Part shown: positions 1 to 20,211 of the stretch, one piece after another | How the letters are laid out: each line of letters opens with the position of its first letter | Numbering within the stretch: the stretch's first letter is position 1 | Assembly (NCBI GenBank): GCA_963712515.1 | Contig: CAVQIG010000018.1 | Span: forward strand, 17,401 to 81,400 | Length of the DNA: 64,000 nucleotides | From: an uncultured delta proteobacterium | GTDB lineage: Bacteria > Desulfobacterota > Binatia > JACPRU01 | Direction: 5' to 3' | The notes under the pieces: generated by a model | Seen by the model: only the letters and a program-made list of their open reading frames with translations | Database searches by the model: none | What the model was told of the DNA's origin: nothing | Made by a program: the position numbers and the translations under genes

Positions 1-93
1 CACGGAGTGGACAAAACAGGCCAGCAGGGCTGACAGGAGCACGGCACGGGCGGTTCTGGTCGTGGCTTTCCGCCTGGAAGCTTCCGATCCCAC
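1..93 (-). CDS. Possible 5' end of a secreted protein running off the window
   Basis: GTG at 93 after a GGGGAGG RBS-like motif; reads MGSEASRRKATTRTARAVLLSALLACFVHSV (signal-peptide-like). Confidence 0.35.
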   Translation of the reverse strand, partial: MGSEASRRKATTRTARAVLLSALLACFVHSV

Positions 94-164
94 GAGCCGC
101 GATCTTGCCTCCCCGTTCCTTTGAGGTTGGTGAACGGGGGACGCGGCAAGCCAGGGTGACCTCT

Positions 165-1625: not shown

Positions 1626-1828
1626 GTCACATCCCCCTGTCCGACGAGTCGTGCCCCAGCGGGTTCGCGAGCGCACGCATCTACCAATGAACCGAACGAT
1701 CCTCGATGACAAGTTGCGGGCGGATGCTGCGAGCGACGATTGAGCCTCGTCCAATCCCGGCAAATCGTGATAGGGCGTTACGCTGGAAACGAGTCCGCTG
1801 GATCGCGCAAAGCTAACGGAGAGCGAAC

Positions 1829-3322
1829 ATGAGCGAAGCGATTGCCGTCAATCTCAAGTACCCTGATCGATTCTTCGTCGGGGGCGAATGGGTCAAGCCC
1901 TCGAGCGAACGGATGCTCGACGTCGTGTCGCCGAGCACCGAGCAGACGATCCTGCGCGTGGCCGAAGCGCGCGAGGCAGACGTCGATCACGCGGTCGCGG
2001 CTGCGAGGAAGGCGTTCGACGAAGGTCCGTGGCCGACGTGGACCCACGCGGAGCGCGCCGAGCGGCTGCGCGCGATGGGCAAGCATCTACGCGAGCGCGC
2101 GGGCGAGATCTCGCATGCGTGGACCGGCCAGGTCGGCGTCGTGCTCTCGATGACCAAGGGCGCAGGAAATCGTTGCGCCGACATCTTCGACCTCTACGCG
2201 AACCTCGCCGCGACGTATCCCTGGGAGGAGCATCGCAAGCCCTCGTACGGCAAAGGCATCGCGCTGCTGGTGCGCGAGCCGGTCGGCGTCGTCGCCGCGA
2301 TCACGCCGTGGAACGCTCCCCTCGAGGTGATGACGATCAAGCTCGCGCCCGCGCTGCTCGCGGGCTGCACGGTGATCATGAAGCCGTCGCCCGAGACCCC
2401 GATCGAAGCGTACATCCTGGCCGAAGCCGCGGAGGCGGCGGGCCTTCCTCCCGGGGTGCTGAATCTGCTGACCGCCGACCGCGAGGTCTCGGACTACCTG
2501 GTGCAGCGCCCCGGAGTGGACAAGGTGAGCTTCACCGGCAGCACGGCCGCGGGCCGGCGCATCGCTTCCGTCTGCGGTTCGCGCATCGCCCGCGTGACGC
2601 TCGAGCTAGGCGGCAAATCGGCGGCGATCGTCCTCGACGACTTCAGCGTCGCCGACGCGGTCACGAGCTTGTCGCGCAGCGGCTGCATGATGAGCGGGCA
2701 GGTGTGCGCGGCGCTCACGCGGGTGGTCGTGCCGCGCGCGCGTCACGACGAGTTCGTCGACGGCTTCAAGGATGCGTTCGGCAAGGTGCGGGTCGGAGAT
2801 CCCTTCGATCCCAACACGCAGATGGGGCCGCTCGCGATGAAGCGCCAGCTCGCGCGGGTCGAGGGGTACATCGCCAAGGGCAAGGCGGAGGGGGCGACGC
2901 TCGCGACTGGCGGCCACAAGCCGAAGGGCCTCGATCGCGGCTACTACATCGAGCCCACGCTTTTCGCGAAGGTCGATAGCTCGATGACGATCGCCCAGGA
3001 GGAAATCTTCGGCCCGGTCCTCAGCCTGATTCCCTACGACACGGTCGACGACGCGATCCGCATCGCCAACGACACGATCTACGGCCTGAACGGCGCGGTC
3101 TATACGAACGACAACGATCGCGCGTACGCCGTCGCCCGACGGGTGCGCACGGGCAACTTCGCGCAGAGCGGATTCAAGCTCGACTTCACGATCGCGTTCG
3201 GCGGCTTCAAGCAATCCGGCATCGGCAGGGAAGGCGGCACCGAAGGTCTGCTGCCGTACCTGGAAACGAAGACCGTCTTCTTGAACGGCGAGCCAGCCCG
3301 CCGCAATCGTCCCGGGAATTGA
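1829..3322 (+). CDS. Aldehyde dehydrogenase
   Basis: PWN, FTGST, LELGGK, GQVC (catalytic Cys), EEIFGP, FGGFKQSG motifs. Confidence 0.97.
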   Translation: MSEAIAVNLKYPDRFFVGGEWVKPSSERMLDVVSPSTEQTILRVAEAREADVDHAVAAARKAFDEGPWPTWTHAERAERLRAMGKHLRERAGEISHAWTGQVGVVLSMTKGAGNRCADIFDLYANLAATYPWEEHRKPSYGKGIALLVREPVGVVAAITPWNAPLEVMTIKLAPALLAGCTVIMKPSPETPIEAYILAEAAEAAGLPPGVLNLLTADREVSDYLVQRPGVDKVSFTGSTAAGRRIASVCGSRIARVTLELGGKSAAIVLDDFSVADAVTSLSRSGCMMSGQVCAALTRVVVPRARHDEFVDGFKDAFGKVRVGDPFDPNTQMGPLAMKRQLARVEGYIAKGKAEGATLATGGHKPKGLDRGYYIEPTLFAKVDSSMTIAQEEIFGPVLSLIPYDTVDDAIRIANDTIYGLNGAVYTNDNDRAYAVARRVRTGNFAQSGFKLDFTIAFGGFKQSGIGREGGTEGLLPYLETKTVFLNGEPARRNRPGN

Positions 3323-3353
3323 ACGAGGCAGCGCGCCGCCGACCGAGCGAGTG

Positions 3354-4097
3354 TCAGAATTCCTGCGCCGTCGGACGCAGCAGGATCTCGTTCACGTCGA
3401 CCTCGGACGGTTCGGCAATCACGTAGGCAATCGCCCGCGCGATCACCTCCGCAGGAATCGCCATCGCGTAGAGCGCTCGTGTTCGCTCCTGAAGGTCAGG
3501 CTCGGTCACGCTGTCGGCTAGCTCCGTCGCCACCGCGCCCGGAGAGATGATCGTCGTGCGGATCCCGTAGGGTTTGACCTCCATGCGGAGGCCTTCGGAG
3601 ATGACCCGCACTGCGTGCTTGGTCGCCGCGTAGACCGCGTTCCCGGGTCTCACCTTGTGGCCAGCGACCGAGGACACGTTGATGATGTGGCCGCTTCGTT
3701 GCTCTTTCATGAGCGGCAGCGCCGCTGCGATTCCGTAGAGCAAGCCCTTCACGTTGACGTCGATCATGCGGTCCCAGTCGTCGACCTTCAGCCGCTCGAA
3801 GGGCGACAGAGGCATGATCCCCGCATTGTTGACGAGCACGTCGACTCGGCCGAAGGTCTCCCGCGCGCCGCGCACGAGAGCCTCGACGTCGGCGCGGCGG
3901 ACCACGTCAGTCACTGCGGTATGCGCCTTGCCGCCCGCCTTGCGGATCTCTCCGGCGAGACGATCGAGACGATCCTTGCGCCGCGCTCCGAGCGAGACCA
4001 GGGCACCGTTGGCGGCCAGATGCTTCGCGGCTGCTTCACCGATGCCGCTGCTCGCGCCCGTGATGACCACGACCTTACCTACGATCGAATCGTTCAT
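3354..4097 (-). CDS. SDR-family oxidoreductase (YdfG-like)
   Basis: [17 protein letters not shown] motifs. Confidence 0.95.
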
Positions 4098-4302
4098 GAT
4101 CCCTTCCTATAGCCTCGAAGCGTCGGCGAGGCGACCCTCTGCCTCGCGATCTCGATCTCGGCGCGGACGCCGTAGCGAGCTTCGCGGCATCCTCGCTGGC
4201 CGCACCGATCCGCCGGCACGCGATTCAAATCCAGGGAAGATTTCTACTGTGCGCGCTGATCGGGCGCGCCTTAAAAGCGCCGGCTGCGCATTTTTCGATT
4301 TC

Positions 4303-4318
4303 CGGCACGAACCTTGCC
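4303..4318 (+). promoter_or_regulatory. Putative sigma-54 (-24/-12) promoter upstream of the dlt operon
   Basis: cGGCACG-aacc-TTGCc with exact GG-N10-GC spacing. Confidence 0.6.
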
Positions 4319-4639
4319 TTTCGCGGGGGGATCGACCGGATGATGACCATTCTGTGTTGCCGCGTCGCGGGTCGAGCGCAGCCGAGCTCCTGGCAGCTGC
4401 ATGCGTCAACGGGTACGTGAGAAGGACCGTTATTCGTGTCGAGTGAAGCCTGAGCCTAGCGGGACATCCGTCCATCGCGGGTTCTTACCGGTGAAGCGTC
4501 ATAGCGAACACGAATGCTCACGGGCCTGACAACGCAGGAGATTGTCGTCGTACTTGGGAGAGCGCTGCTTGTCATCGTCGCAGGGATGTATTCGCTCTTG
4601 CGCCACCTCACCTCGTTGCAGCCCTATTCGTGATCGCGG

Positions 4640-5944
4640 GTGTCACGCCGGCTCTCTCACGAGGAGGTCCACCAACGCTCGACTATCCCCGCCTTCGTGG
4701 CCCGTGGATTGGCCGGGGCGCCTTCTTCCCCTACCGGCGAAAAGGTGACGCGGTTCGCCGAAGCGACGTTTCCGGCTCGCTTGTCGGGGGCAGCGGCCAG
4801 CCATCCTCACCTGACGGCGGGACTTCTCGCGATCGGGATCTTCGCGGCGGCCCTCGTCGGCGGGGTGGTCTATGCCCGCCAACTGGAGAGTCGCTATGTG
4901 CGGAGCCTTGCCGAGTTGAAGCTGCGGAAAGCGTACCGCTCGGCGGCGCTTTCCGTAGCTGCCCTCCGTCACCCAGACCTCCTCCTCTTCTACGGCAGCT
5001 CGGAGCTCGAGGCCCCGAATCCGCTCCGCGCGACCGATTTGTTTCGCACGTACCCGACCGGGTTCCAAGTCTTCCCGGTCGGCCGCGGCGGCAGCACCCC
5101 GTTGATCATGTTGCAGGACCTCGCGGCCGTCGGCTCGACGATCCGCGGCAAACGGGTCGCGGTGTCGCTCTCGCCGACGTGGTTCTACGGGATCTCGATG
5201 GCTCAGCTCAAAAATATCTATGCAGGCAATTTCTCCCCGCTCGAGGTGTACGCTCTGACCTTCAGCACGGACTTCAGCCGGGGTCTTCGACGGGCCGCGG
5301 CCCGTAGCATGCTCCGCTACAGCCGTACGCTCCGAGATCCCTTTCTCAAGCTCTCGCTGCAGGCGCTCGCCAGCCGCAGACCGTCGAGCCGTGCGCTCTA
5401 CGCCCTCGTCTGGCCGCTGGGTAAGCTCGAGGAGCTCGTTCTCGGGCTGCAAGATCATTGGAAGTCTGTGCGCCTGGTCCGGGGGTATTCCGACCTGCCG
5501 AGCCGGACACTTCACGAGCCGCTGAAGCTCGATTGGACGGAGATCTTGAGCGAGGCTCAAGAAGAAAACGCCTACCGACCTCCAATCAAGGACAGGCCGT
5601 ACGGCAAGGAGATGGAGTCGAATCTGAGACTATCCGTGCAGTGGGCGGACCTCGAGCTCTTACTCGAGGGTCTGAAGCAGCTCGGCGCGCGCCCGTTGTT
5701 ACTCAGCATGCCGATCGCCGGCTCCTTCTACGATAGGCAGGGAATTTCCCGCGAAACGCGCCACGAGCTCTACTACGAGCGGTTGAGGGAGCTCGCGAAG
5801 CGTCACGGCGTCCCGCTCATCGACTTCGAGAACGAGGACGAGGACGCCGAGTTCCTGAGCGGCGTCGGATCGCACCTCTCGTCCAAGGGATGGGTCTACT
5901 ATGATCAGACGCTCGATCGCTTCTATCACGGCGCTCTGGACTGA
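4640..5944 (+). CDS. dltD: D-alanyl transfer protein DltD (start uncertain, possibly 4745)
   Basis: N-terminal TM helix, YGSSEL, SLSPTWF, C-terminal HLSSKGW; operon context. Confidence 0.88.
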   Translation: MSRRLSHEEVHQRSTIPAFVARGLAGAPSSPTGEKVTRFAEATFPARLSGAAASHPHLTAGLLAIGIFAAALVGGVVYARQLESRYVRSLAELKLRKAYRSAALSVAALRHPDLLLFYGSSELEAPNPLRATDLFRTYPTGFQVFPVGRGGSTPLIMLQDLAAVGSTIRGKRVAVSLSPTWFYGISMAQLKNIYAGNFSPLEVYALTFSTDFSRGLRRAAARSMLRYSRTLRDPFLKLSLQALASRRPSSRALYALVWPLGKLEELVLGLQDHWKSVRLVRGYSDLPSRTLHEPLKLDWTEILSEAQEENAYRPPIKDRPYGKEMESNLRLSVQWADLELLLEGLKQLGARPLLLSMPIAGSFYDRQGISRETRHELYYERLRELAKRHGVPLIDFENEDEDAEFLSGVGSHLSSKGWVYYDQTLDRFYHGALD

Positions 5945-6074
5945 GCCGGGAAGGGCGCCGGCACTCCGGATCGTCCTCCTCACGGCCTTTTACCTCGCCG
6001 TTTTCGCTGGCCTCGTCGTCCTCTATGGCCGCGGCCACTTTCGTGCGCCCCGCTTCGTCTACCAGGATTTCTGA
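5901..6074 (+). CDS. dltX: DltX small membrane protein, 57 aa (not in ORF track)
   Basis: MIRRSIASITALWTEPGRAPALRIVLLTAFYLAVFAGLVVLYGRGHFRAPRFVYQDF*; one TM helix and C-terminal FVYQDF matching the DltX FxYxxF tail; AAGGGA upstream; directly before dltA. Confidence 0.85.
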   Translation: MIRRSIASITALWTEPGRAPALRIVLLTAFYLAVFAGLVVLYGRGHFRAPRFVYQDF

Positions 6075-6083
6075 AAGAGGCCG

Positions 6084-7547
6084 ATGCACGTACTCGATCG
6101 CGTCGACTCGGCCTGCCACCGCGTTCCGGATCGCGTCGCTCACAGGAGCGAAGGCCGGACCCTTACCTACGCGGAGCTCCGGCGCTCCTCGGACGCGCTT
6201 GCCGCGAGCATCGAGCGGCTACTCCCGGGCGATCGCTCGCCGATCGTCGTCGTCGGCCACAAAGAGCCCGAGATGCTCATTGGCTTCCTCGGCGTCGCCA
6301 AGGCCGGGCATGCCTACGTGCCGCTCGACAGCAGCCTCCCCCGCGCGCGGCTCGAGCAGACGGTCGCGGCCGCGGACGCAAGGCTCGTCCTCACGCCGAA
6401 GCGCGTCCGCGAGCTCGCCGAAGGCGACGTGCCCCCGCCGCCCCGGCGCCTCAGCGGCAACGATCCTTTCTACGTGATCTTCACCTCGGGGAGCACCGGC
6501 GACCCGAAAGGTGTGGTGATCACCGCCGGATGCCTCGAGAGCTTCGTCGACTGGCTGATCGACGAGCATCGCTTCGGCGAGGACCGCGAGGTCTTTCTCA
6601 ACCAGGCGCCCTTCTCGTTCGACCTTTCGGTCATGGATCTGTACCCGTGCCTATCGACGGGCGGGACGCTCGTGAGCGTCACGGCCGACGAGATCGCGAA
6701 CCCAAAGCGTCTCTACCGGACACTCGCTGGTTCCGGCGTAACTGTTTGGGTATCGACACCCTCCTTCGCGCGCATGTGCCTCGCGGAGCGGAGCTTTGGC
6801 GAAGCAATGCTGCCGGCGCTCCGACGCTTCCTGTTCTGCGGTGAGACGCTACCGCCGGAGGTGGCTGCCGCTCTCCTCGACCGCTTTCCGCGAGCCGAGG
6901 TCTGGAACACTTACGGCCCGACGGAGGCCACTGTCGCAACGACGTCCGTGCGCATCGACCGTGCCCTTCTTGCGCGTGAATCGCCGCTCCCGGTCGGCCG
7001 TACGAAGCCGGGCACGCAGATCGTCGTCGTCGGAGAGGACGGCGCACCCGTACCGGCGGGCGCGCGTGGCGAGATCGTCATCGCCGGACCGAACGTCGGC
7101 GTCGGATACGTCGGGCGGCCGGAGCTGACCGCGCAGGCGTTCTTCGAGCTCGACGGGGTACGTGCGTACCGGACCGGCGATCTGGGTCGGTTCGAGGGGA
7201 GCCTTCTCTTCTTCGAGGGCCGAGCCGACGATCAGGTGAAGCTCCACGGTTACCGCATCGAGCTCGGGGACGTGGAGGCGAACCTGCGGGCGCTCGCCCG
7301 CGTGCGGGACGCCGTCGTGGTGCCCGTCCTGAAGGACGGCGTCGCTGATTCGCTTGCCGCTTTCGTCGTGCTCGACGGCGCCGCGGCCGCCGAGACGCCC
7401 GCCGAGGTCACGCGGTCGCTTCGTGCCGAGCTCCGCGAACGGCTCCCGGGTTACATGCTGCCGCGGCGCCTGGAGTTCCTCGATTCGTTGCCGACGAACC
7501 TCAACGGCAAGGTCGATCGCCGCCGCCTCGCGGAGATGCTCCGGTGA
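6084..7547 (+). CDS. dltA: D-alanine--D-alanyl carrier protein ligase
   Basis: FTSGSTGDPKG, NQAPFSFDLSVMDLY, FLFCGE, NTYGPTE, NGKVDR. Confidence 0.95.
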   Translation: MHVLDRVDSACHRVPDRVAHRSEGRTLTYAELRRSSDALAASIERLLPGDRSPIVVVGHKEPEMLIGFLGVAKAGHAYVPLDSSLPRARLEQTVAAADARLVLTPKRVRELAEGDVPPPPRRLSGNDPFYVIFTSGSTGDPKGVVITAGCLESFVDWLIDEHRFGEDREVFLNQAPFSFDLSVMDLYPCLSTGGTLVSVTADEIANPKRLYRTLAGSGVTVWVSTPSFARMCLAERSFGEAMLPALRRFLFCGETLPPEVAAALLDRFPRAEVWNTYGPTEATVATTSVRIDRALLARESPLPVGRTKPGTQIVVVGEDGAPVPAGARGEIVIAGPNVGVGYVGRPELTAQAFFELDGVRAYRTGDLGRFEGSLLFFEGRADDQVKLHGYRIELGDVEANLRALARVRDAVVVPVLKDGVADSLAAFVVLDGAAAAETPAEVTRSLRAELRERLPGYMLPRRLEFLDSLPTNLNGKVDRRRLAEMLR

Positions 7548-8728
7548 CGCCGTACGCGGGCTTCACGTACTTCGGCGTCGCGCTCTATCCGAGCGTGCCG
7601 GCCGTCGCGCAGGGATTGTTTGGCGCGCGAGGGCGACGCACGGTGCTCGTCGTCGCGGTCGTTGGCATGACGATCGTACAGTACTGGCAGGCCACCCGCT
7701 TGGTGGTCGGTGGCGCCCATTCATCGGTGCGCGAGCTCTGGCTCGTTGCGGGCTTTGCGGCCCTGCAGTGGACGGTTGCCCGCGGCATGCTGGCCGGCCG
7801 GACCGTAGGTAGGCCGTGGCCGCTCGTCGTCTCGATCGGCTTGTCGCTCGCGCCCCTTGCCGCGGCGAAGCTGGCGCCGGTCTTCTCTTCTGGCTCGCGG
7901 GTCGAGTTCCTCGGCCTCTCCTACGTGACGTTCCGGAGCCTCGACGTGGTCTTCTGCATCAACGATGGCGCCGTCCACAGGCTTCCGGCCGTAGAGTATC
8001 TCGCCTACCTATTCTTCTTTCCGACCGTTTCGGCGGGACCCATCGACCGCTTCCGGCGCTTCGAGCGCGACTGGAAGGTCGAGCGCGATCGCGCCGCCTT
8101 CCTCGCGGACTTGGACGGAGCCGTGCAGCGGATCGTCCGCGGCTTCTTCTACAAGTTCCTGATGGCGGGGATGGTGCAGCGGCATTGGATGAACGCCGCA
8201 GCGGCCGGCACGGGGTTCGCGGCCACGCTCTCTTACATGTATGCCTACAGTCTCTACCTCTTCTTCGACTTCGCCGGCTACAGCGCTTTCGCGATCGGGT
8301 TCAGCTATCTCTTCGGCGTCCACACGCCCGAAAACTTCGATCGGCCTTTCCTAGCGAGGAACATCCGTGACTTCTGGAACCGCTGGCACGTTACGCTGTC
8401 CGGCTGGTTTCGTGACCACGTCTACACGCGCTTCGTGCTCGCGGCGGCGAAGGGACACTGGTTCTCGGACATCCGCACGGCATCGTATCTCGGGCTCTTC
8501 CTAGCCATGGGCCTCATGGGCCTCTGGCACGGAACGACTTGGTACTACGTCGCCTACGGACTTTACCACGGCGCGTTGCTCGTGGGTCACGACGTCTTCG
8601 TGCGCTGGAACAAGGAGAGGCGTCTTTGGGGCGACGGTCCCGTCTGGCAAGCGGCGGGCTCCTTCGTCACGTTCCATGCGGTCGCGTTCGGGTTCTTGAT
8701 GTTCTCGGGTCGCCTAGCTCGCTCATAG
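7544..8728 (+). CDS. dltB: MBOAT D-alanyl transfer protein
   Basis: GPIDRFRRF, LFFDFAGYS, DFWNRWH, GLWHG (catalytic His); coupled to dltA by a GTGA overlap. Confidence 0.95.
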   Translation: MTPYAGFTYFGVALYPSVPAVAQGLFGARGRRTVLVVAVVGMTIVQYWQATRLVVGGAHSSVRELWLVAGFAALQWTVARGMLAGRTVGRPWPLVVSIGLSLAPLAAAKLAPVFSSGSRVEFLGLSYVTFRSLDVVFCINDGAVHRLPAVEYLAYLFFFPTVSAGPIDRFRRFERDWKVERDRAAFLADLDGAVQRIVRGFFYKFLMAGMVQRHWMNAAAAGTGFAATLSYMYAYSLYLFFDFAGYSAFAIGFSYLFGVHTPENFDRPFLARNIRDFWNRWHVTLSGWFRDHVYTRFVLAAAKGHWFSDIRTASYLGLFLAMGLMGLWHGTTWYYVAYGLYHGALLVGHDVFVRWNKERRLWGDGPVWQAAGSFVTFHAVAFGFLMFSGRLARS

Positions 8729-8736
8729 GAGGCATC

Positions 8737-8997
8737 ATGTCTAGTGCAGAGCGGATCCTCGCGATCCTCTCCCGCGTAGCGCAGACGGAAGAGGTGAAGG
8801 ATCACCCGGATCTTCCGCTCTACGAACTCGCGATTCTCGATTCCCTGAGGACCGTTGAGCTGATGGCCGCATTTTCGGCGGAGCTCGGCGTCGAGGTTTC
8901 GCCCGCGGAGCTCGATCGCGAGGACTGGGAGACGCCCGCCAAGATCGTCCGCTACATCGAGAATCGGCTTGGCTCGCGAACCGCCGTGCATCATTAG
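8737..8997 (+). CDS. dltC: D-alanyl carrier protein
   Basis: GGAGG RBS; LDSL phosphopantetheine site; DREDWETPAKI typical of DltC. Confidence 0.93.
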   Translation: MSSAERILAILSRVAQTEEVKDHPDLPLYELAILDSLRTVELMAAFSAELGVEVSPAELDREDWETPAKIVRYIENRLGSRTAVHH

Positions 8998-9255
8998 ACG
9001 GGCAATCACTTCTTCTTCCACTCTCGGCTCTCGCCATCGGCGGCGGCTCTGCGAGCCTGCCGGTAATGGCGATCCGCTGCTTCCTCGGTCTTGACGAGGC
9101 GGACGAGTTCGCGGTTCCTGTGGGGCGGGTGGATGCGCATGGTCACCGCGGACGATATCGTCGACGCCACCGTGCTCTTGCAGAGACGCGGAAGGTGAGC
9201 AGTCCCTCGTGGTCGGGCAAACGACGCCGGATGCTCGCGGCGGCAAGTCGCCTCA

Positions 9256-10989
9256 GTGCCGCATGAGTCTATGAGCGCGGCTCCTTCGCCGCTATCGCAG
9301 CGTTCCGTAGCAGTCCGGTCGCAGGTGCCGGTCGAGATCGCTCCCCCCCGCCTCCACGCGCTCCGCGCCGCCGAAGCCTGGAGCGCCGCCGTGCTGCTCG
9401 CCCTGCAGTTCGCGCTGCGCATCGCCTATGCCCTGCGCGAAAGGGTCGACACGGACGAGCCCCAGCACCTGCACGTTGCCTGGGCGTGGACGCAGGGGCT
9501 CGTGCCCTACCGGGACGTCTTCGACAACCATGCCCCGCTGTTCCATCTGCTGATGGCGCCGTTCGTGGCGGCGCTCGGCGAGCGCGCGGACCTGCTGATC
9601 GCAATGCGCCTGGCGATCCTGCCGCTCACGGCGATTCTGTTGTGGTCCGTCTACCGGCTCGGCCGTGAGTTGTTCTGCGATCGAGTCGGCTTGTGGGCGG
9701 CGACGCTCTTGGGAGTGATGCCGGCCTTCTTCCTGACATCGCTCCAGTTCCGTGCCGACGATCTGTGGGCGGCGCTCTGGCTGGCCGCTCTCGCGACGGC
9801 CGTCACCGGTCGGTTCGGCGCCGGGCGCGCGCTGGCGACGGGAGCACTGATCGGCGCGACGTTCGCCGCGTCGATAAAGACCTGTATGCTCCTCGCCACC
9901 TTGCTCGCCGCTTTGGCCGCGTCGCTCGCGATGGATCGCCGACGCACGATCGATCTTCGCGACCGGCGGACTTGGATCTCGGCTGGCGCGTGCCTCGCGG
10001 GCATGGCGATGGTCGCGACGGTCGTCTTAGGCCTCTTCACGTGGCTCGGGGCGCTCGCGGAGATGCGCGATCTCTTAGTCCTCCACAACCTCGCCGCCAG
10101 CGCGCGATGGGACTACCCGGGAGCGCGGGTGACGATGTTCGCCGTGATGTTCCCCGCAACCGTCGCGCTTGGTGCCTTCGTTTTGCGGGGCCATTCGACG
10201 CGCGCGTTCGCACGATGTGTGGTCCTGGTGAGCAGCTTGCTCTACATCATCACTCTGAACGGGTTCTGGCCGATCGTCACCCGTCAGGATTGTCTCCCTT
10301 TCTATCCCGTGCTCGCCGTGTTCCTGGTAGCCGCGCTGCTCGAGCTCATGCCGGCGCCCAACCGCAATACGTCGGCGGTCCTCGTATTGATCGCGGTCGT
10401 GCAGATCTCTATGACGCTCTGGGTGTCGCCGCTGCGCAAGAACGGGACGCGCTCTCACGTCGGCCTCGTCGGCGACGTCCTGCGTCTGACTCCCAAGACC
10501 GCTCCCGTCATGGACCTGAAAGGCGAGGCCCTGTTTCGGCGCCGGCCGTTCTTCTACGCGCTCGAGGACGTCACGCGGGTGCGACTGCGTAATGGAGATC
10601 TCGCCGACGACATCGCCGAGCGTCTGATCGCCACGCGCACGTACGTGAGCGTCAACGATAGCCCGAGATTTCCGCCTCGCGCCCGCGCCTTTCTGTTCGA
10701 GAACTACGTGCCGGTCGGCCACTTGCGGGTGGCGGGCAAGCTCTTCGGGGTCGATGCCGCCGGCCGCGGCACGTTCACGATTGCGGTTCCCGGCCGCTAC
10801 GCGGTGCTCGCGCCCAGCGGTCGGGTCGCAGGCGCGCTCGACGACCGTCCTCTCGAGGGGGCGCGGATGCTCGAAGCGGGTCCACATTCCTTTCAGCCAT
10901 CCTCGCCCGCGACGATGCTCGCGGTGGTCTGGGCTGACGCGGTCGAGCAGGGGTTCTCGCCGTTCCACCCCGGGGATGTGCACCAGTGA
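9256..10989 (+). CDS. GT-C fold (ArnT/PMT_2-like) membrane glycosyltransferase
   Basis: DTDEPQHLH first-loop motif, PYRDVFDNHAPL, many TM helices, C-terminal periplasmic domain. Confidence 0.8.
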   Translation: MPHESMSAAPSPLSQRSVAVRSQVPVEIAPPRLHALRAAEAWSAAVLLALQFALRIAYALRERVDTDEPQHLHVAWAWTQGLVPYRDVFDNHAPLFHLLMAPFVAALGERADLLIAMRLAILPLTAILLWSVYRLGRELFCDRVGLWAATLLGVMPAFFLTSLQFRADDLWAALWLAALATAVTGRFGAGRALATGALIGATFAASIKTCMLLATLLAALAASLAMDRRRTIDLRDRRTWISAGACLAGMAMVATVVLGLFTWLGALAEMRDLLVLHNLAASARWDYPGARVTMFAVMFPATVALGAFVLRGHSTRAFARCVVLVSSLLYIITLNGFWPIVTRQDCLPFYPVLAVFLVAALLELMPAPNRNTSAVLVLIAVVQISMTLWVSPLRKNGTRSHVGLVGDVLRLTPKTAPVMDLKGEALFRRRPFFYALEDVTRVRLRNGDLADDIAERLIATRTYVSVNDSPRFPPRARAFLFENYVPVGHLRVAGKLFGVDAAGRGTFTIAVPGRYAVLAPSGRVAGALDDRPLEGARMLEAGPHSFQPSSPATMLAVVWADAVEQGFSPFHPGDVHQ

Positions 10990-11795
10990 GCCTTCCCACG
11001 CCTGCCTCGAGAACACTGCCGGAACCCGCGCGCGCCGCGGTCGGCGCGGGATGTGTCACCGTCATCATTCCGATCTACAACGAGGCGGCGCACGTCGAGG
11101 AGATTCTCAGCGCGGTCGAAGCTTCTCCCGTGGCAAAAGAGATCGTGATCGTGGACGACGGATCGACCGATGGCACGCGCGACAAGCTGCGGGCGCTGTC
11201 CGCGGCTGACGGGCTGACCATCGTCTTTCACGAGAAAAACTACGGGAAGGGCGCGGCTGTCCGGACGGGCTTGCAATACGCGCAAGGGGAGTACGTCCTG
11301 ATCCAGGATTCTGACCTGGAGTATGATCCTCAGGACTATCCCGCTCTCTTGCGTCCGCTGCGGGAGGGCAAAGCAAACGTGGTCTATGGCGTGAGACCGG
11401 ACCGGCCGGAGCGCGGCTTACGGTTCTATCTCGGGGCGAAGTTCCTGACCTACCTGACCAACCTGCTGTACGGCGCGGGCATTCAGGACGAAGCCACTTG
11501 CTACAAAGTCTTTCGTCGTTCACTCCTCGAAAACATCCCGTTGCAGTGCCGTCGCTTTGAGTTTTGTCCCGAGGTCACGGCCAAGCTCTGCCGCCGGGGA
11601 GAAAAGATCTGGGAGGTGCCCATTTCCTATTTCCCGCGCAGCCACGAACAGGGCAAGAAGATCCGGTACTCGGACGGCTGCACCGCCATCTGGGCCTTGG
11701 TGCGCTTTCGCTTTTCGTCTCGCCGGACCCTTCGCCTGGAGACGAAGAAGCTCGACCCCTTTCCAGTCAGTTTCGTCCGCCAGCCGTCGCGTTGA
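10986..11795 (+). CDS. GT2 polyprenol-phosphate glycosyltransferase (DPM1/ArnC-like)
   Basis: IIPIYNE, VDDGSTDGT, NYGKGAAV, QDSDLEYDP, RFEFCPEVT. Confidence 0.93.
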   Translation: MSLPTPASRTLPEPARAAVGAGCVTVIIPIYNEAAHVEEILSAVEASPVAKEIVIVDDGSTDGTRDKLRALSAADGLTIVFHEKNYGKGAAVRTGLQYAQGEYVLIQDSDLEYDPQDYPALLRPLREGKANVVYGVRPDRPERGLRFYLGAKFLTYLTNLLYGAGIQDEATCYKVFRRSLLENIPLQCRRFEFCPEVTAKLCRRGEKIWEVPISYFPRSHEQGKKIRYSDGCTAIWALVRFRFSSRRTLRLETKKLDPFPVSFVRQPSR

Positions 11796-11877
11796 GTGCG
11801 TCTGCGGCGCTCGCGCCCGAGAGCTTCTGCACTAGGAACAGGCTGCCTGCCCATTCGATGGGCCGCGCGGCCGCCCA

Positions 11878-11915
11878 GCGCCGACGCCACCCACGCGAAT
11901 TTCGGGTCGAGGTTA
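11878..11915. mobile_element. Single end of the MITE-like element found at 42512-42697
   Basis: 35/38 identity to the reverse complement of 42512-42549; ends in TA overlapping the stop codon of the 11913-13025 gene. Confidence 0.75.
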
Positions 11916-13025
11916 GGAAAAGCATTTCATCCACCGGACAAGCTCCTCGTCCACCTGATGCACCTCGCTCGGCCGCTCCAGGAACCACCGGCGAGATTTC
12001 CAATTGGTCGTGATCGCTTTGAAATGCCGATGGGTGACAAGCGACGCGACATCCGCATCGGGCAGCATTTCGGTCACGAGGTGGACGCACCATTGCGCGT
12101 GCGCGGGGCATCGCGACGGTACCAGGGTCCATTTGTTGAGCGCATGCGCCGGCAGCACTCTGCGGTAAATGTAGTGGCAATGCCGGCGTGCGTCTCCGTC
12201 ATTCATTTCTGTGGCGTTTTCGATCATGATACCCGGGTATGCGAGATACCCGGTTCGGCTGCGCCGCGCGAGATCGAAGATCGATTCCCCGGTACGGGTC
12301 ACAACCAGCTCATCGATGTCCGCATTCACCACCGCATCCGCGCAGGCAAGAAAACGTAGACGGGCATGCTCCATCACGCCGTACTGAGAAAAATCCGAAT
12401 CCCACATCCATGACGGACCACCGCCAGGACCGAACTTAAAGGGCCAATTCACCACGACAGCCGTTTCCAGACCGGCGATCGACGAAAGCGTCTCGTGAAT
12501 TTCCTCTATGCTGTAGCGGGCCGACGCATTGTCGTAGATCAGCACGGCATTGCAACCGTGGTTGGCGACGTAGAATATCGCCCAGTCGCGAATCCACGTC
12601 AGATCGTTGTCTTTCGACTTCGTGACCAGCACTCGCTTGCTGCGAAACAATTCGCAGTGACTGGGTTGGATGGCGAGGGCTCGCTGCTTGAAACATTGCC
12701 CGTCGAACTCGACGCGGGATGCACGCGGCGCAACCCAAATCTGCATATTCCGATCGAGATGACGGACTTCGCAACGAGAAAAAAGCCGCCTCGCCAACGC
12801 GCGCTGGACCGTGGCCACGACGGGCGACTCTAGATTGTACAGCGGCGGTCCGAGACAGACGGCACGACGCCCGCCGGGCGTCCAGAAACAATCGTAGAAT
12901 ACAGTGTAATAGTCGAAAGCTTCTTCGAACCCGGGTTGCCGGTGCTCCGGCGGGCGCGCCGGGATGCGGCGCAGGTCGTTTGCTTCGTCGAGATCCAGCC
13001 GCGAGAGCGCGATCGTCCGCGTCAC
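11913..13025 (-). CDS. Glycosyltransferase, GT92/GT2-like
   Basis: LIYDNAS and NADIDE (DxD) motifs; HRHFKAI near the C-terminus. Confidence 0.7.
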   Translation of the reverse strand: MTRTIALSRLDLDEANDLRRIPARPPEHRQPGFEEAFDYYTVFYDCFWTPGGRRAVCLGPPLYNLESPVVATVQRALARRLFSRCEVRHLDRNMQIWVAPRASRVEFDGQCFKQRALAIQPSHCELFRSKRVLVTKSKDNDLTWIRDWAIFYVANHGCNAVLIYDNASARYSIEEIHETLSSIAGLETAVVVNWPFKFGPGGGPSWMWDSDFSQYGVMEHARLRFLACADAVVNADIDELVVTRTGESIFDLARRSRTGYLAYPGIMIENATEMNDGDARRHCHYIYRRVLPAHALNKWTLVPSRCPAHAQWCVHLVTEMLPDADVASLVTHRHFKAITTNWKSRRWFLERPSEVHQVDEELVRWMKCFS

Positions 13026-13139
13026 ATCGCCTCCGGCGTCCTTTACGGGTCGCCCCAGCGGCGAAGCAAAACCTGTCGCAGCATTGCCTCGGCCTGTTCG
13101 GCGTGCACGTCGAAATATCCAGCCATGTTCGCCGCCGTT

Positions 13140-14738
13140 CTATGTACCGCTAAGCCATTCGACGGGCTTGCCATCGACGTCCTCGAGGGACACTCCTAGG
13201 CGGCTGGAGATGCTGGGAGCAATATCCTCCAAATCGATGGGCGGCAGTGACCTGGCAGTCGGAATACCGGGGCCATAGGCGAGCAGCAAGCCGTCAGGGC
13301 GATGGTCGCCGCTGCGCCAGTTTAGATAGGGCGCATGGACCATCCCCGTCTTGGGCGACCAGACGGTCTCGATGGGACCCCGACGCACCCAGTCGATGAA
13401 CAGGTCCGGTATCCTGTCGTCCGGACGGCGCCGATAGTGGGCATCCGCCCGGATGACGGATCGAATGACCGGATCGCCGGTGGCGACATTGACCAGCGAG
13501 AGCAAATCCTTTGTCAGCGCGGCGCAGGTCTTGTCGAAGTCATCGGGGTGGACGGTGCCGCGCGGCTCGCGGCCCGTCAGATTGAGGCGCACGCCGCCAT
13601 AGACGTAGTTGTTCGGTTCCATGAAAAAATGCTGCTGCGCCCTGGCCGCCGGCGTGGCGTATTCGGCGGCCGACGGCAGATGCCGGGATAGGGCGCGCCG
13701 GCGCAGCGCCGGGGTGGCGAAGGCCGTCAGCTGCCGCAGCAGGGGGCGGGGCAGGGACAGGCTCGCGCGCTTGAGCCCATCCAGGACACTCCTGACTGGC
13801 GGAGGATTGCGATCGAAAGCATCGATCCGCGTCAGTACCTCGTCGAGCATATGCGTGCCGTCGTGATGGGGGCCCATGCCGTGACTGAGATGGACGAGCA
13901 CGGCGGCGTCCGTGGGAGAGTGAGAGAGAAGCTCACCGAGGGCGCGATCGAGCGCGGCGTAGGTCGCCCGCAAAGGATCTCTTCCTATGGCTGCCAGGAC
14001 GTTGCGGTCGAAGCGGGGATGGTTTTCGTCGTGGAGATGCCATTGTTGATGCCCGACGGAGTGGCTTTCCCCGAAGACGGTGAGGAACAGATCCCAATTG
14101 CCCTCTCTTAATAGGGCCGCGGAGAGCTTGCACTTCGCGTGGGTGCCTTGGACCAGTCCCTCCAACAAAGTGACCTCTTCCTCCACGCTGCGAAGCGGTC
14201 CTTCGCGATGGGCATAGTCATCCGGCGCAAACTCGCGGACGCTATGGGCGTCGAGCCCGAGAACCGGATGCAGGCCGAAGGCGGATTCGATCTGCACGGC
14301 GGCGCTGGGCGGCCAGCTATGGAAGCCGAAATGCCGGTCGTGGCAGCCCCATTCGACGATCTGCAAGCCGTTGACGGCGGTCTTGGCCGCGGAATGAGGC
14401 ACGTCGATGATCGCTGAGCGGCGCCCGGCATCGCCGAGCGCGTGCCAGAACGGCGCGGGGGAGCCGCCGGTGGGCGGCGCCGTCAGGCGTCGTTCATAGG
14501 TGGAGACCTCGATCTCGTCCCAGCAATGAAAATGGTGGCGGTCCGGGCGAAGAGCGGTTGCGAAACTCATCCAGAGCGCGCCCACGAACAGGCCGACGGG
14601 ATTGCGCACGAGAGCGCGAGCGGTGTGGTCGAAGAGCCGGGCCAGCGTCGGAAGCTCGCCGGTCTTTGCCAGGGCCCGCGCGATCTCATGATCGCAAGCA
14701 TCCAGGGCGACGAATATAACCGGGCCCCTAGAGTTCAT
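13140..14738 (-). CDS. Alkaline phosphatase superfamily protein (nucleotide pyrophosphatase/phosphodiesterase-like)
   Basis: FVALDA, HSVGHQQWH, SHGMG, SGDHRPDG; start MNSRGP overlaps the upstream gene's stop. Confidence 0.85.
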   Translation of the reverse strand: MNSRGPVIFVALDACDHEIARALAKTGELPTLARLFDHTARALVRNPVGLFVGALWMSFATALRPDRHHFHCWDEIEVSTYERRLTAPPTGGSPAPFWHALGDAGRRSAIIDVPHSAAKTAVNGLQIVEWGCHDRHFGFHSWPPSAAVQIESAFGLHPVLGLDAHSVREFAPDDYAHREGPLRSVEEEVTLLEGLVQGTHAKCKLSAALLREGNWDLFLTVFGESHSVGHQQWHLHDENHPRFDRNVLAAIGRDPLRATYAALDRALGELLSHSPTDAAVLVHLSHGMGPHHDGTHMLDEVLTRIDAFDRNPPPVRSVLDGLKRASLSLPRPLLRQLTAFATPALRRRALSRHLPSAAEYATPAARAQQHFFMEPNNYVYGGVRLNLTGREPRGTVHPDDFDKTCAALTKDLLSLVNVATGDPVIRSVIRADAHYRRRPDDRIPDLFIDWVRRGPIETVWSPKTGMVHAPYLNWRSGDHRPDGLLLAYGPGIPTARSLPPIDLEDIAPSISSRLGVSLEDVDGKPVEWLSGT

Positions 14739-15679
14739 CGCTTGTTCTTCTCGCGCACATAGTCGAAGTCGGCCTCGTAGGTAGGGCCGTGGCTTAATCG
14801 ATGGGGTGCGTCCGTGGTGTAGAAGCAGGCGATGACCGGCAGACCCAGCGGCGGTGCATCGCGGGTGAGTCGCAGGAAGAGATCCCAATCCCCCATTTCC
14901 CGCAAGGACACGTCGAAATGGGCTTCCGCTAGGCCGGCGCGATGCGCGATGCAGCCCATATCGGCGATGTTGCTCTTGGTCACCGCATGATGGTCGTAGG
15001 GCCAGTAGTAGAGCTTCGGCAGGTCGCCGCGGCCTTTCCCGTCGATGCGCGCGGTGTCATCCACCACGAAGGCACCATAGAGGACATTCGTCTCAGGCCG
15101 CTGCTCGAATGCCCAGACGACCGACCTCAGCCATTCGGGATGCATGACATTGTCGTCGTCGAGATAGGCGATTAGCCCGCCGCGCGCCTTCGACAGCGCC
15201 TCATTGCGCGCTGCGCAAACGCCGGCGCCGGCGGAGCGAAGTCTCCTGATTCGGGGATCGCTCAGCCGATCGATGACGGCCGCCGTGTCGTCCCGACTGG
15301 CGTCGTCGACAATCAACAATTCCCAGTTTCGATGCGTCTGCGCCATGACCGAGCCCACCGCGCGCAGGAGGAGGGCACAGCGGTTGCGGGTCGGCAGGAT
15401 GACGGAGACAAGTGGGACCTCCCTCGGGGGCAGGTACTTGATCCAGTCCATGACTGCGCGGACGGTGAGTTGCCGCTCGTGCTCGTCGAGCGACAGCTGG
15501 AGGAGATCCATCCTCTCGAACGCTGCGGCGTGGTAGCCATCGAGTCGATTTTCCAGGGCAGTGATTCGCGCCAGCGAGGCCGCAAGCTTGATCTCGAGGT
15601 CCGCGACCTGCTGCTCGCTCGCTAACAGCCGCGCTCTTACCGCGGCGACGCGCCGGAAGATTTGCAATCGCGGCCACAA
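14735..15679 (-). CDS. GT2 glycosyltransferase with N-terminal coiled coil
   Basis: VSVILPTRNR, VDDAS, YLDDDN, GDWDLFLRL. Confidence 0.9.
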   Translation of the reverse strand: MWPRLQIFRRVAAVRARLLASEQQVADLEIKLAASLARITALENRLDGYHAAAFERMDLLQLSLDEHERQLTVRAVMDWIKYLPPREVPLVSVILPTRNRCALLLRAVGSVMAQTHRNWELLIVDDASRDDTAAVIDRLSDPRIRRLRSAGAGVCAARNEALSKARGGLIAYLDDDNVMHPEWLRSVVWAFEQRPETNVLYGAFVVDDTARIDGKGRGDLPKLYYWPYDHHAVTKSNIADMGCIAHRAGLAEAHFDVSLREMGDWDLFLRLTRDAPPLGLPVIACFYTTDAPHRLSHGPTYEADFDYVREKNKR

Positions 15680-15738
15680 TGCCTGGTAACTTACCGCACT
15701 TCCACCCTTTTTTGTATTTCCTGTTCGGAACAGCGCGC

Positions 15739-15873
15739 CTGTATCTTTCTCCCGCCGAGTACGTGGACAGCGACCACCCCGACGTGCGCGCCTTCGCCCG
15801 CGAGGTCGTTGTCGAAGGCGCGACCCGCCAAGGAGAAGGGGAGGGCGCTCTACGTTGCCGTTCGGGAGATCCG
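15739..15873 (+). pseudogene. Frameshifted N-terminal fragment of a transglutaminase-like protein
   Basis: LYLSPAEYVDSDHPDVRAFAREVV, then in another frame KEKGRALYVAVREIR; similarity then stops. Confidence 0.6.
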
Positions 15874-16431
15874 CGCTCGCTCGAGAAGCGGATACCCTAC
15901 GTATCGCTTTCTCGGAGCTCGGAAGACGTCCGCCGTCTCTTGATCAAGAACCTGGTCAGCGAAGAGGGCCTCGGTGGAGAACCACCGCATTTGCAGCTGC
16001 TGATCGAGTTCGGCGAAGAGATTGGACTGAACGCCACGGAGTTCTACAGTGCCGAACCCATCCTCGAGGTCGATGGCTTGTGCAACTTCTACGCCCGCAT
16101 TTTCTACGGCGGAACGATCGTCGAAGCGGCCGCTGGGTTCAATCTCGCCTTCGAGGGATTGCTTGCGCGCGAGTACCCGAAGATCGCAGAAGCCCTCAAG
16201 AGCCACTACCACGTGAGTCCCAAAGGTCTCCGCTTTTGGGAAATTCACGTCGAGGCGGACGCCGAGCACAGTGGAGACGGCGAGACGATTCTCAACAAAT
16301 ATGCGACGACCGCGGAGCTGCAGAGCAAAGCGCGCCGGGCTGCATTGGTCGGGCTCGAGCATCGTTACGTGGCGATGGACGGGATATTTCGTCGCTTCTC
16401 GGCTGCCTCGAACCACCTGCACCCGGTTTGA
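15874..16431 (+). pseudogene. TenA/PqqC/CADD-like (heme-oxygenase-like) protein, apparently N-terminally truncated or fused
   Basis: NLVSEEG...H, LAFE, FWEIHVEADAEH diiron-type ligands; continuous ORF 15679-16431. Confidence 0.65.
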
Positions 16432-17358
16432 TCACGCGAGGCGGATCCAGTCCCGAGGTCGGAGAAATTTCTCGTAAAGCTCTGCTTCCGGCGTCCCCGG
16501 CTCGGGTCGCCAGTCGTAGCGCCACGAGACGAGCGGCGGCAACGAGGCGAGGATCGACTCGACACGCCCGCCCGATTGCAGACCGAAGCGCGTACCGCGG
16601 TCGTACATCAAATTGAACTCCACGTAGCGACCGCGACGGAAGAGCTGGAACGAGCGCTCGCGTTCCCCGTACGAGTGGCGCTTTCGGCGTGAGAGGATCG
16701 GCCGATAGCCGAGGAGGTAGTGCTCGGCGACGCTCTGGACGAACGCGAACGAACGCTCGAAGCCACCCTCGGTCAGGTCGTCGAAGAAAAGACCGCCGAT
16801 GCCGCGGGGCTCGTCGCGGTGCTTGAGGACGAAATATTCGTCGCATGCTCGCTTGTAGCGTGCGTAGAGGTCGGCGCCGAAGGGGTCGCATGCGGCCTTC
16901 GCCGTGCAATGCCAGTGAACCGCATCCTCTTCGAAGCCGTAGTATGGCGTCAGGTCGAACCCGCCACCGAACCACCAGACGGGCTCCTGGCCGTCGCGTG
17001 CGGCGAGGAACAAGCGGAAGTTCGCGTGGCTCGTCGGCGCGTACGGATTCCGCGGATGCACGATCAGGGAGACCGAGATCGCGTCGTAGCTCGCGCCGGC
17101 GAGCTCGGGCCGCCGCGTGGTCGCGGTGGCGGGGAGATCGCGGCCGACCGTGTGCGAAAAATTCACGGCGGCGCGCTCCAGAACGGGTCCGTCCGCCAGT
17201 ACCCGCGGCCTCGCGAAGCCGCCTCCGTCGCCTTCGATACGCTCGTCAAGGAAGCGGGCTTGCCCGTCTTCCTCCTCGAGCGCGCTCGTCACGCGGTCCT
17301 GGTAGTCGAGGAGGAACGTCTCGACCGCCGCCAGGTGCGAGAATTCCCGTCTGGCCAT
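16432..17358 (-). CDS. hemF: Oxygen-dependent coproporphyrinogen III oxidase
   Basis: [36 protein letters not shown]. Confidence 0.97.
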
Positions 17359-17456
17359 CTCTCGAACCGAGATTCTACTCGACCCTGGGGAAGGGGTCAC
17401 GTCCCCACTGCCCCTCTCCCTTGCAGGTGTGCGGCGCTCCCAGTAACTTCCGCCGC

Positions 17457-19130: not shown

Positions 19131-19223
19131 GGACACGCTTTGGAATTCCAAGCCGCGTGTTGGTCGAACAGAGACGGGACCGCGAACAACGAGAGCGATC
19201 TGTGACGCAGGCTCCCTACCCGG

Positions 19224-19904: not shown

Positions 19905-19923
19905 GCCTTTCGAAGGTACGCGA

Positions 19924-20211
19924 ATGCCCGGGAAGGGTAAAGGGATTGCAGGTGCAGCGGCGCTCGGCGCCATCGCGATTCTCGCGGGTTGCGCGAAGCC
20001 ACTCCCGGAAGAGGGCTCGCCCTCGGCGGATGTCTATCGGCGACGGTGCGGTGGCTGCCACCGCCCAGTGCAACCTTCGAGCATGAAGTATGCGCTGTGG
20101 AACATGTTACTTCCCCGAATGGAACAGCGCATGCGCGAGGCTCGCGAGCCACCGCTCAGCGCAGACGAACGTGCGACGATCGAGTCCTATCTTCGGCGAA
20201 ATGGCGGTTGA
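19924..20211 (+). CDS. Monoheme cytochrome c lipoprotein
   Basis: Lipobox LAGC; CGGCH heme motif; distal Met. Confidence 0.8.
   Translation: MPGKGKGIAGAAALGAIAILAGCAKPLPEEGSPSADVYRRRCGGCHRPVQPSSMKYALWNMLLPRMEQRMREAREPPLSADERATIESYLRRNGG

Follow-up and report, generated by a model that had tools for sequence, protein, structure and literature searches.

A predicted complete D-alanylation operon in a lipopolysaccharide-making bacterium of the class Binatia, with relatives across environmental phyla

Analysis of a 64,000-nucleotide stretch of contig CAVQIG010000018.1 (positions 17,401 to 81,400 of the forward strand; hereafter the window) from an uncultured delta proteobacterium of the class Binatia (GCA_963712515.1) revealed a dlt operon in which five genes are closely packed on one strand, between positions 4640 and 8997, in the order dltD-dltX-dltA-dltB-dltC (Table 1). 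The Dlt pathway is usually presented as a Gram-positive trait that places D-alanine on teichoic acids. All five reading frames are open and full length, and to judge from its sequence the operon appears to be complete, intact Dlt machinery of the canonical type. An intact dltD-X-A-B-C operon had been claimed in a first-pass annotation of this DNA, and each gene was indeed found in place and intact, with scores at or near the curated cut-offs. The host genome is a 5.84-Mb metagenome-assembled genome (MAG) in 27 contigs, 82% complete with 2.5% contamination, and the window lies in a contig of 84.8 kb.

Table 1. Features at and beside the dlt operon (window positions), with the evidence for each call.
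Feature	Position	Strand	Basis
dltD	4640-5944	+	PF04914 153.8 bits (cut-off 22.7); TIGR04092 147.1 bits (cut-off 150)
dltX	5901-6074	+	57-amino-acid microprotein; PF12459 25.6 bits (cut-off 25)
dltA, D-alanine--carrier protein ligase	6084-7547	+	NF003417 556.4 bits (cut-off 476)
dltB, membrane-bound O-acyltransferase (MBOAT)	7544-8728	+	TIGR04091 401.6 bits (cut-off 375)
dltC, 86-amino-acid D-alanyl carrier protein	8737-8997	+	NF003464 74.4 bits (cut-off 68)
Intergenic spacer, dltC to GT-C gene	8998-9255		258 bases
GT-C fold glycosyltransferase (PMT_2, ArnT-PMT type)	9256-10989	+	PF13231 PMT_2 31.7 bits (cut-off 26.1)
GT2 glycosyltransferase, polyprenol-phosphate sugar synthase type	10986-11795	+	PF00535 120.2 bits
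48-base intergenic repeat, repetitive extragenic palindromic (REP)-like	11865-11912		33 other genome copies; matched in family genomes
370-amino-acid protein, distantly GT92-like, family unnamed	11913-13025	-	homologues only
AlkP-superfamily protein, type I phosphodiesterase family	13140-14738	-	PF01663 56.8 bits
GT2 with N-terminal coiled-coil-like extension	14735-15679	-	PF00535 103.5 bits
CADD/haem-oxygenase-like di-iron protein	15679-16431		PF14518 69.7 bits

Besides the matches in Table 1, DltA scored 545.2 bits against TIGR01734, slightly below the cut-off of 559.85, and DltC scored 68.4 bits against TIGR01688 (cut-off 52.35). The dltD and dltX genes overlap, as do dltA and dltB by 4 bases, and dltC starts at an ATG at 8737 with AGGAGG upstream. 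DltD is predicted to be an SGNH-type transferase anchored in the membrane. Its start codon is uncertain because its relatives align only from about residue 46-58; the protein has an N-terminal transmembrane (TM) helix at about residues 55-82, followed by an extracytoplasmic domain. DltX has a single TM helix and ends in FVYQDF, in agreement with the motif FXYXXF, and DltB is a protein of 394 amino acids without fused C-terminal shuttle helices.

Nearly all of the key residues of the pathway are kept in these proteins. The best solved match of DltA was DltA of B. cereus (3fcc, 497.8 bits), with which it aligned end to end, keeping the FLNQAPFSFDLSVMD, FLFCGE and NTYGPTEATVA blocks; the cysteine of FLFCGE, position 269 of 3fcc as counted on the alignment, is one that we take to play a part in D-selectivity. 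DltB best matched 6bug (237.9 bits) and keeps the histidine of MGLWHG, the serine of DltC sits in ILDSLRTVEL, and DltD, for which DltD 6pfx was the best solved match, keeps the catalytic serine (FYGSSELE) and histidine (GSHLSSKGW). An open reading frame (ORF) ending in F-x-Y-x-x-F-stop lay directly upstream of dltA in 75 of the 81 loci examined. The mechanism of DltX was reportedly established in a paper of 2023. The motif is described, in the part of PMC12148441 that was available, as an 'acyl shuttle' whose tyrosine carries D-alanine from DltB to DltD.

The gene content of the host points to an envelope with an outer membrane. The genome encodes LpxC (260 bits), BamA (634.7 bits) and LptD, and the window itself encodes CcmF, SurA beside PdxA, and a PpiD-like protein, so that the diderm host proposed earlier from SurA, PpiD and Ccm was borne out by those genes as well as by LpxC, BamA and LptD; we conclude from these matches that the host is a lipopolysaccharide (LPS)-making diderm. 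Among the genes for teichoic acid synthesis, no match to a TagF-type glycerophosphotransferase (PF04464) was found in the 82%-complete host genome, and no host protein reached the LtaS equivalog cut-off of 970 bits (best 90.4). Of 16 sulfatase-domain matches in the genome, one showed the LtaS/OpgB architecture (G000:C16:26920-28968), being a protein of 676-682 amino acids with N-terminal TM helices and a sulfatase-type domain, for which the best solved relatives were VP1736 and the LtaS/LtaP ectodomains and the best NCBIfam models were LtaS, at 90.4 bits, and phosphoglycerol transferase I (77.7 bits vs a cut-off of 572). The neighbourhood of this gene, L172:669-10478 (= G000:C16:22668-32477), contains a GT4, a PA14-domain protein and PMT_2 GT-Cs and is another envelope-modification neighbourhood.

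The distribution of the operon in its lineage was sparse and patchy. DltD was present in 10 of the 401 sampled genomes of the class, including 7 of 25 in family f9, 1 of 18 in f11 and 1 of 26 in f13; none of the 7 genomes from the host's own family had it. Across 401 genomes sampled from the phylum, PF04914 exceeded its cut-off only in the host. A DNA search with window positions 1-20000 against five family genomes returned no match longer than about 135 bases inside 4640-8997. In a tree of DltA and DltB together (70 rows, quick search under LG+G4 with Shimodaira-Hasegawa-like approximate likelihood ratio (SH-aLRT) supports), operons of the same class fell in three places, and the approximately unbiased test rejected a single clade of the five same-class rows (log-likelihood difference 173, p 4.8e-5). 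The operon would then be a rare accessory, acquired by horizontal transfer. Synteny between the host and the same-genus genome is broken into blocks of about 8-10 kb throughout, so that no clean insertion boundary can be drawn. Just upstream of the operon, window positions 178-4142 (a LarA-like gene, an aldehyde dehydrogenase and an SDR) showed 86-91% DNA identity to genomes of another genus of the family and had no comparable match in the same-genus genome, a pattern that reflects either mosaic ancestry or gaps in the same-genus MAG. The surroundings of dlt are a rearranged, accessory-rich stretch.

A survey of species-representative genomes, from which the 80 best DltB loci were taken, placed the operon in a wider group. 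The loci came from Verrucomicrobiota (43, mostly Udaeobacter/Chthoniobacterales), Chloroflexota (15), Bacillota (13), Planctomycetota (3), Acidobacteriota (2), Gemmatimonadota (2), Pseudomonadota (1) and an unnamed lineage (1). In the 70-row tree, the non-Bacillota rows formed a clade of 55 with 99% SH-aLRT support, which holds operons of Verrucomicrobiota, Chloroflexota, Planctomycetota, Gemmatimonadota and Acidobacteriota beside that of the window, and Bacillus-type operons lay outside it. The window operon grouped with one Acidobacteriota and two Gemmatimonadaceae loci, without strong support (93). Gene orders varied, D-C-X-A-B being the commonest (25 loci) and D-X-A-B-C, the order of the window operon, being shared by just three other loci, all of Planctomycetota. 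In Chloroflexota and Verrucomicrobiota some operons contained dltD genes in tandem, three in L106, L140, L099 and L092 and two in L071, L094, L100 and L103; such paralogues would be consistent with a range of acceptor specificities. A search for envelope genes covered five named genomes with dlt, each from a different phylum, and LpxC was found in three of them, a TagF-type gene in none and LtaS above its cut-off in none. No paper on this dlt clade was found, supplements and subscription papers being beyond the reach of the literature search, and the large clade that these complete dlt operons form across environmental diderm phyla has apparently gone unreported.

The survey also returned loci of other make-up. 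In five Verrucomicrobiota loci (L079, L089, L097, L107 and L110) a DltB with 52-55% identity was encoded with no other dlt gene in the flanks, and two loci of the class (L048 and L052) held a lone DltD paralogue. The Planctomycetota loci of D-X-A-B-C order carry, upstream of dltD, a gene of PF00144, the beta-lactamase/DD-peptidase family (for example, L073:4951-5934 on the minus strand), whose gene cluster also has members in L077 and L079. This gene is reminiscent of DltE of Lactiplantibacillus and of the pbpG/dltD arrangement of Dickeya.

The operon had been described earlier as joined to the glycosyltransferase (GT) genes that follow it, namely a co-oriented GT-C with a polyprenol-phosphate GT2 and, facing them, a GT2-AlkP-GT92-like operon. 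The genes themselves were recovered, the pair through PF13231 and a likeness of the GT2 to ArnC, DPM synthase and GtrB, and the facing cluster as three minus-strand genes for which 'GT92-like' is a fair label. As to the joining, dlt and GT-C are adjacent on one strand, but the 258-base spacer between them leaves a single operon unsupported. Co-occurrence was surveyed in 91 other dlt loci (11 from the class and 80 named), with flanks of up to 10 kb where the contig allowed. A homologue of the window GT-C was found near dlt in none of the 91 loci (tblastn), nor was any GT-C-like ORF (phmmer with three different GT-C queries), and a GT2-like ORF was found in seven, so that the module of dlt with GT-C and GT2, which had been made to depend on such co-occurrence, was abandoned. 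When 1,265 ORFs from 92 loci were clustered, only DltA, DltB and DltD were common across lineages. Neighbours specific to Verrucomicrobiota included an NtrC-type regulator, a kinase fragment, PGI and an S9 peptidase, and those conserved within that phylum are housekeeping genes.

The GT-C gene has a history of its own in the host's family. In the same-genus genome G001, which lacks dlt, its counterpart is 79% identical in amino acids and 83% in DNA, and homologues with 45-49% amino acid identity were found in three further dlt-free genomes of the family, each in a different gene context. Among the nine other dlt-bearing genomes of the class, six have a GT-C homologue nowhere and three have one apart from dlt: in G095 and G119 the two lie on different contigs, and in G179 the homologue is not on the 3.1-kb contig fragment that carries dlt. 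By these comparisons GT-C is native to the host's family and lies outside the dlt module, and it was rejected as a dlt partner for want of co-occurrence across class genomes or loci. In the reading that we favour, neither the GT-C/GT2 pair nor the GT2/AlkP/GT92-like cluster that faces it has any relation to dlt beyond proximity.

A second, native Dlt-like relay was observed outside the window, at L171:2934-11329 (= G000:C9:45933-54328). Its genes encode, in order, a carrier protein, a microprotein ending in FLYIGF (FXYXXF), a fatty-acyl-AMP-ligase-like enzyme, a DltB-like MBOAT (170.8 bits, under the cut-off), an SGNH-like protein, two unknown genes and two tandem PMT_2 GT-Cs. This relay is kept in the family genome G007, with 48-86% amino acid identity.

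Modelled on the Firmicutes pathway, as set out in the available portions of PMC12148441 and PMC13653941, the window proteins would act in three steps. In the cytoplasm, DltA would adenylate D-alanine and load it onto the phosphopantetheine arm of DltC; DltB would carry the D-alanyl group across the inner membrane and, at its outer face, hand it to DltX, on the tyrosine of the FVYQDF C-terminus; and DltD, anchored in the inner membrane, would take it on its serine and esterify a hydroxyl of the acceptor at the periplasmic face. Since DltD would have its domain in the periplasm, held by an anchor in the inner membrane, the acceptor must pass through or reside in that compartment, and candidates include lipid A-core or O-antigen intermediates ahead of their export, periplasmic glucans, peptidoglycan, exopolysaccharide intermediates and exported proteins. 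We consider it likely that the window carries an acquired canonical Dlt system in an LPS-making diderm, with unrelated GT neighbours, by which D-alanine is esterified onto a periplasm-exposed, non-teichoic acceptor. In this system the cargo would be D-alanine; the acceptor would be LPS or its precursors, another periplasmic glycan or a protein; and the role would be charge shielding against cationic peptides. A non-teichoic acceptor is reasonable since the host makes LPS as a diderm, has neither a TagF-type gene nor an LtaS equivalog, and shows no misassembly here. The earlier claim on the acceptor therefore stands as to its non-teichoic nature, on the evidence of the LPS host and of the missing TagF and LtaS equivalog, but not as to a polymer built by the neighbouring GTs, for which co-occurrence is lacking.

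Several observations weigh against this interpretation. DltD falls 3 bits under the TIGR04092 equivalog cut-off and DltA 15 bits under that of TIGR01734, and the aspartate column of the DltD Ser-His-Asp triad is a glycine in the window protein. A canonical alanine racemase is not clear in the genome, PF01168 having matched a 232-amino-acid frame at 81.8 bits and a 493-amino-acid frame at 33.8 bits in a search of an 82%-complete assembly. The host encodes an LtaS-superfamily membrane enzyme, dlt and GT-C share one strand with no predicted terminator in between, the second MBOAT relay of the genome also adjoins GT-C genes, and the family absences were tested in MAGs only. The missing triad aspartate and the lack of a clear racemase, together with the rarity of the operon in the lineage, would be expected of a silent or decaying relic of transfer with no function in the host. 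We regard such a relic as quite improbable, given five open, full-length frames, tight coupling through the dltD/dltX and dltA/dltB overlaps and the ribosome-binding site before dltC, a composition ameliorated to that of the host, and the retention of all other key residues. In addition, the aspartate column is likewise non-Asp in the Udaeobacter group (alignment of 71 DltD rows), and the glycine is weak counter-evidence because many members of the clade with intact operons lack the aspartate too. It would be more surprising still if the dlt block were a binning or assembly artefact derived from a monoderm organism, as might be suspected from a source that is a MAG of the completeness and contamination given above and from the loss of synteny with the same-genus genome to the left of 16429. 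The operon lies inside one contig with host genes on both sides, of which the HemF-IlvD backbone at 16429-19129 shares 90% DNA identity with the same-genus genome and the adjoining GT-C has its close match there, as noted above. The GC content of the dlt genes fits the genome (contig GC 0.649), as does that at third codon positions (0.76-0.85 vs 0.73-0.88 in the flanks), and in tetranucleotide make-up the dlt block has a correlation of 0.966 with the genome, a value that ranks at the 33rd percentile among 400 windows drawn at random. The dlt genes, the spacer and the start of GT-C are tiled by short, near-identical contigs of four further public runs (from four studies, with <=0.15 of the sampled words in each run), in pieces such as 8375-8816 (dltB/dltC) and 9048-9344 and 9195-9408 (spacer/GT-C start); at the dltC/spacer boundary two outside pieces abut and none bridges. 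The nearest DltA and DltB relatives are from other diderm phyla, not Bacillota. The foreign misassembly that the first-pass annotation had allowed for thus finds no support in GC content, third codon positions, tetranucleotides, the host-gene contig or the independent tiling contigs, and the block does not appear to be one.

The remaining alternatives concern the acceptor. Because the host has an LtaS-superfamily enzyme, the acceptor might bear glycerophosphate, such that an LTA (lipoteichoic acid)-like polymer or a phosphoglycerol periplasmic glucan made by an LtaS/OpgB-family enzyme would be D-alanylated by Firmicutes-type chemistry. The LtaS/LtaP-like layout of TM helices and sulfatase-type domain in G000:C16:26920-28968 favours this idea, as does the binding of a glycerol-phosphate chain by Firmicutes DltD, described in the available text of PMC13653941; against it, the scores of the G000:C16 protein are far under both cut-offs, and at E<=1e-30 the enzyme was found in 20 of 401 class genomes, the host and the unpublished G350 being counted among them; it occurs in the dlt-free genomes G001 and G006 and in none of the nine other dlt-bearing ones, and LtaS above its cut-off is missing from all five named dlt-bearing genomes. 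We therefore think a glycerophosphate-substituted acceptor distinctly unlikely, and the LtaS-like enzyme was rejected as a dlt partner, having no co-occurrence with dlt in the other class genomes. Alternatively, dlt and the GT-C/GT2 pair could form one unit in which GT2 makes a polyprenol-phosphate sugar, GT-C transfers it to a periplasmic envelope polymer and DltD D-alanylates the product. In addition to the shared strand and the 258-base gap without a terminator-like site, the spacer/GT-C junction is covered by contigs from other runs, and the upstream region that GT-C has in the same-genus genome is not kept (homology begins only at 9237), so that read-through from dlt could drive GT-C. The PMT_2 GT-C genes after the second MBOAT relay add to this case, and, with the shared strand and no predicted terminator, they make a local, lineage-specific coupling possible. 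Set against these points are the empty flanks of the 91 other dlt loci, the close GT-C of dlt-free G001 and its more distant homologues in three more dlt-free genomes, the nine other dlt-bearing class genomes in which GT-C is either missing or never beside dlt, and the presence of at least seven PMT_2-like GT-C genes scattered among envelope genes of the host genome. In view of this evidence we consider a single dlt-GT unit unlikely, and D-alanylation of a non-teichoic acceptor by a Dlt system with unrelated GT neighbours remains the interpretation that we prefer.

Comparison with known systems showed that the window operon is close in its parts to the Bacillota DltXABCD system (3fcc, 6bug/8jem and 6pfx). 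It has all five components with scores at or near equivalog level and shares the DltA cysteine and adenylation blocks, the DltC serine, the DltB histidine, the DltX FXYXXF motif and the DltD serine and histidine; compared with Bacillus loci, DltA is about 47% identical, DltB 39-43% and DltD 26-29%. Unlike Bacillota, the host of the window operon is an LPS-bearing diderm in which no TagF-type gene or LtaS equivalog was found, the gene order is D-X-A-B-C rather than X-A-B-C-D, the DltD aspartate column holds glycine, and the operon belongs to a separate clade (99% SH-aLRT). Dlt-type genes in diderms without teichoic acids are also represented by dltBAC and dltD (pbpG) of Dickeya and Pectobacterium and by dra of Bordetella pertussis. 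No Dickeya or Bordetella record was among the best 80 DltB loci. As far as the available text of PMC3544676 goes, dltBAC and dltD are separate units in Dickeya, whereas the window has one compact five-gene operon including DltX, and both Dickeya units are induced in insects, a dltB mutant being polymyxin-sensitive. LPS is named 'probably' the Dlt target in Dickeya in the accessible portion of PMC5541007, which cites Pandin 2016, and the parts available of PMC3544676, PMC5541007 and PMC9410548 leave the acceptor open for Dickeya and Bordetella and link the Gram-negative dlt genes to cationic-peptide resistance. The first-pass description of an 'undescribed surface aminoacylation system' was accordingly an overstatement, as the machinery is canonical Dlt and Gram-negative dlt genes were already in print for Dickeya and Bordetella.

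Other systems share single steps with Dlt. The MBOAT-SGNH O-acetylation pairs, PatA/PatB for peptidoglycan and AlgI/AlgJ for alginate, follow the same route from an MBOAT by way of the FXYXXF tyrosine to an SGNH protein and an extracytoplasmic polymer (PMC12148441, available part). Unlike the Dlt proteins of the window, these pairs use acetyl-CoA, without a carrier protein or adenylating enzyme, and their motif forms part of the MBOAT itself, so that no separate microprotein is present. AlmEFG of Vibrio cholerae is said to place glycine or diglycine on lipid A by means of a DltA-like ligase and a DltC-like carrier, with AlmG reportedly a cytoplasmic-face LpxL-type acyltransferase and with no MBOAT, DltX or DltD in the system; its membrane route thus differs from that of the window Dlt, given the absence of those three components. 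Finally, the window GT2, which overlaps the PMT_2 GT-C gene, recalls the two-step glycosylation of ArnC/ArnT and GtrB/GtrC, and differs in that the GT2 has no TM helix, no flippase gene was seen, and the GT-C has no solved relative by sequence.

Analysis of the genes downstream of dlt further characterized this neighbourhood. The spacer at 8998-9255 occurs once in the genome. No Rfam match at E<=0.1 was found across 3900-16500, and a promoter and terminator scan gave no promoter-like and six terminator-like sites vs 5.4 expected, which is not above chance. The GT-C protein has about ten TM helices and a C-terminal soluble domain, and no solved relative was found for it by sequence. The GT2 gene that follows overlaps the GT-C gene by 4 bases; its best-ranking solved relatives are ArnC, DPM synthase and GtrB, and a search for a TM helix in the protein found none. 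On the minus strand, the 370-amino-acid protein had no Pfam match even at E 10 and no NCBIfam match; it has 179 homologues, and its GT92-like label rests on PF01697 (GT92), carried by 9 of 120 homologues among the matches listed. The ORF of the AlkP-superfamily protein extends to 14888, and a metal-site-like sequence, VIFVALDACD, comes after a methionine at ORF residue 51, suggesting that the real start is probably the methionine near 14738; no TM helix was found in this protein, which is soluble. For the GT2 at 14735-15679 the nearest NCBIfam models were WcaA and TuaG, with scores far under their cut-offs. The block at 11913-15679 lies at the 2.5th percentile of random genome windows in tetranucleotide make-up and had no DNA match in five family genomes except one of 36 bases, so that this accessory block seems to have been inserted later than dlt. 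The CADD-like gene abuts both this glycan cluster and hemF with zero gap. A second, different REP-like repeat of about 48 bases lies at 19165-19215, has 31 other genome copies and, like the first, is matched in family genomes.

In sum, the window contains what appears to be a fully canonical five-gene Dlt machine, including DltX, that is established in a host with LPS. The case is not isolated: Chthoniobacterales/Udaeobacter are rich in close relatives of the operon, and four further phyla outside Bacillota have them too, in genomes lacking synthases for teichoic acids. We tentatively propose, as a reading somewhat less likely than not, that the operon belongs to an undescribed clade of five-part Dlt systems spread by transfer among soil and freshwater diderm phyla, which would D-alanylate an acceptor not yet described (LPS, another outer-envelope glycan or a protein), with tandem DltD paralogues, up to three, setting acceptor specificities, and which may serve as a general cationic-charge shield of environmental Gram-negatives. 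The acceptor of this clade would be of a kind not yet described because the sampled genomes lack TagF-type and LtaS-type synthases. The glycan module of dlt with GT-C and GT2, which gave the locus its special look, fails, and the value of the survey lies in the clade. The survey yields organisms, some of them in cultured genera, in which a chemical answer on the Dlt acceptor in diderms could be obtained, and, since D-alanylation lowers susceptibility to cationic peptides, the clade matters for the reading of soil resistomes.

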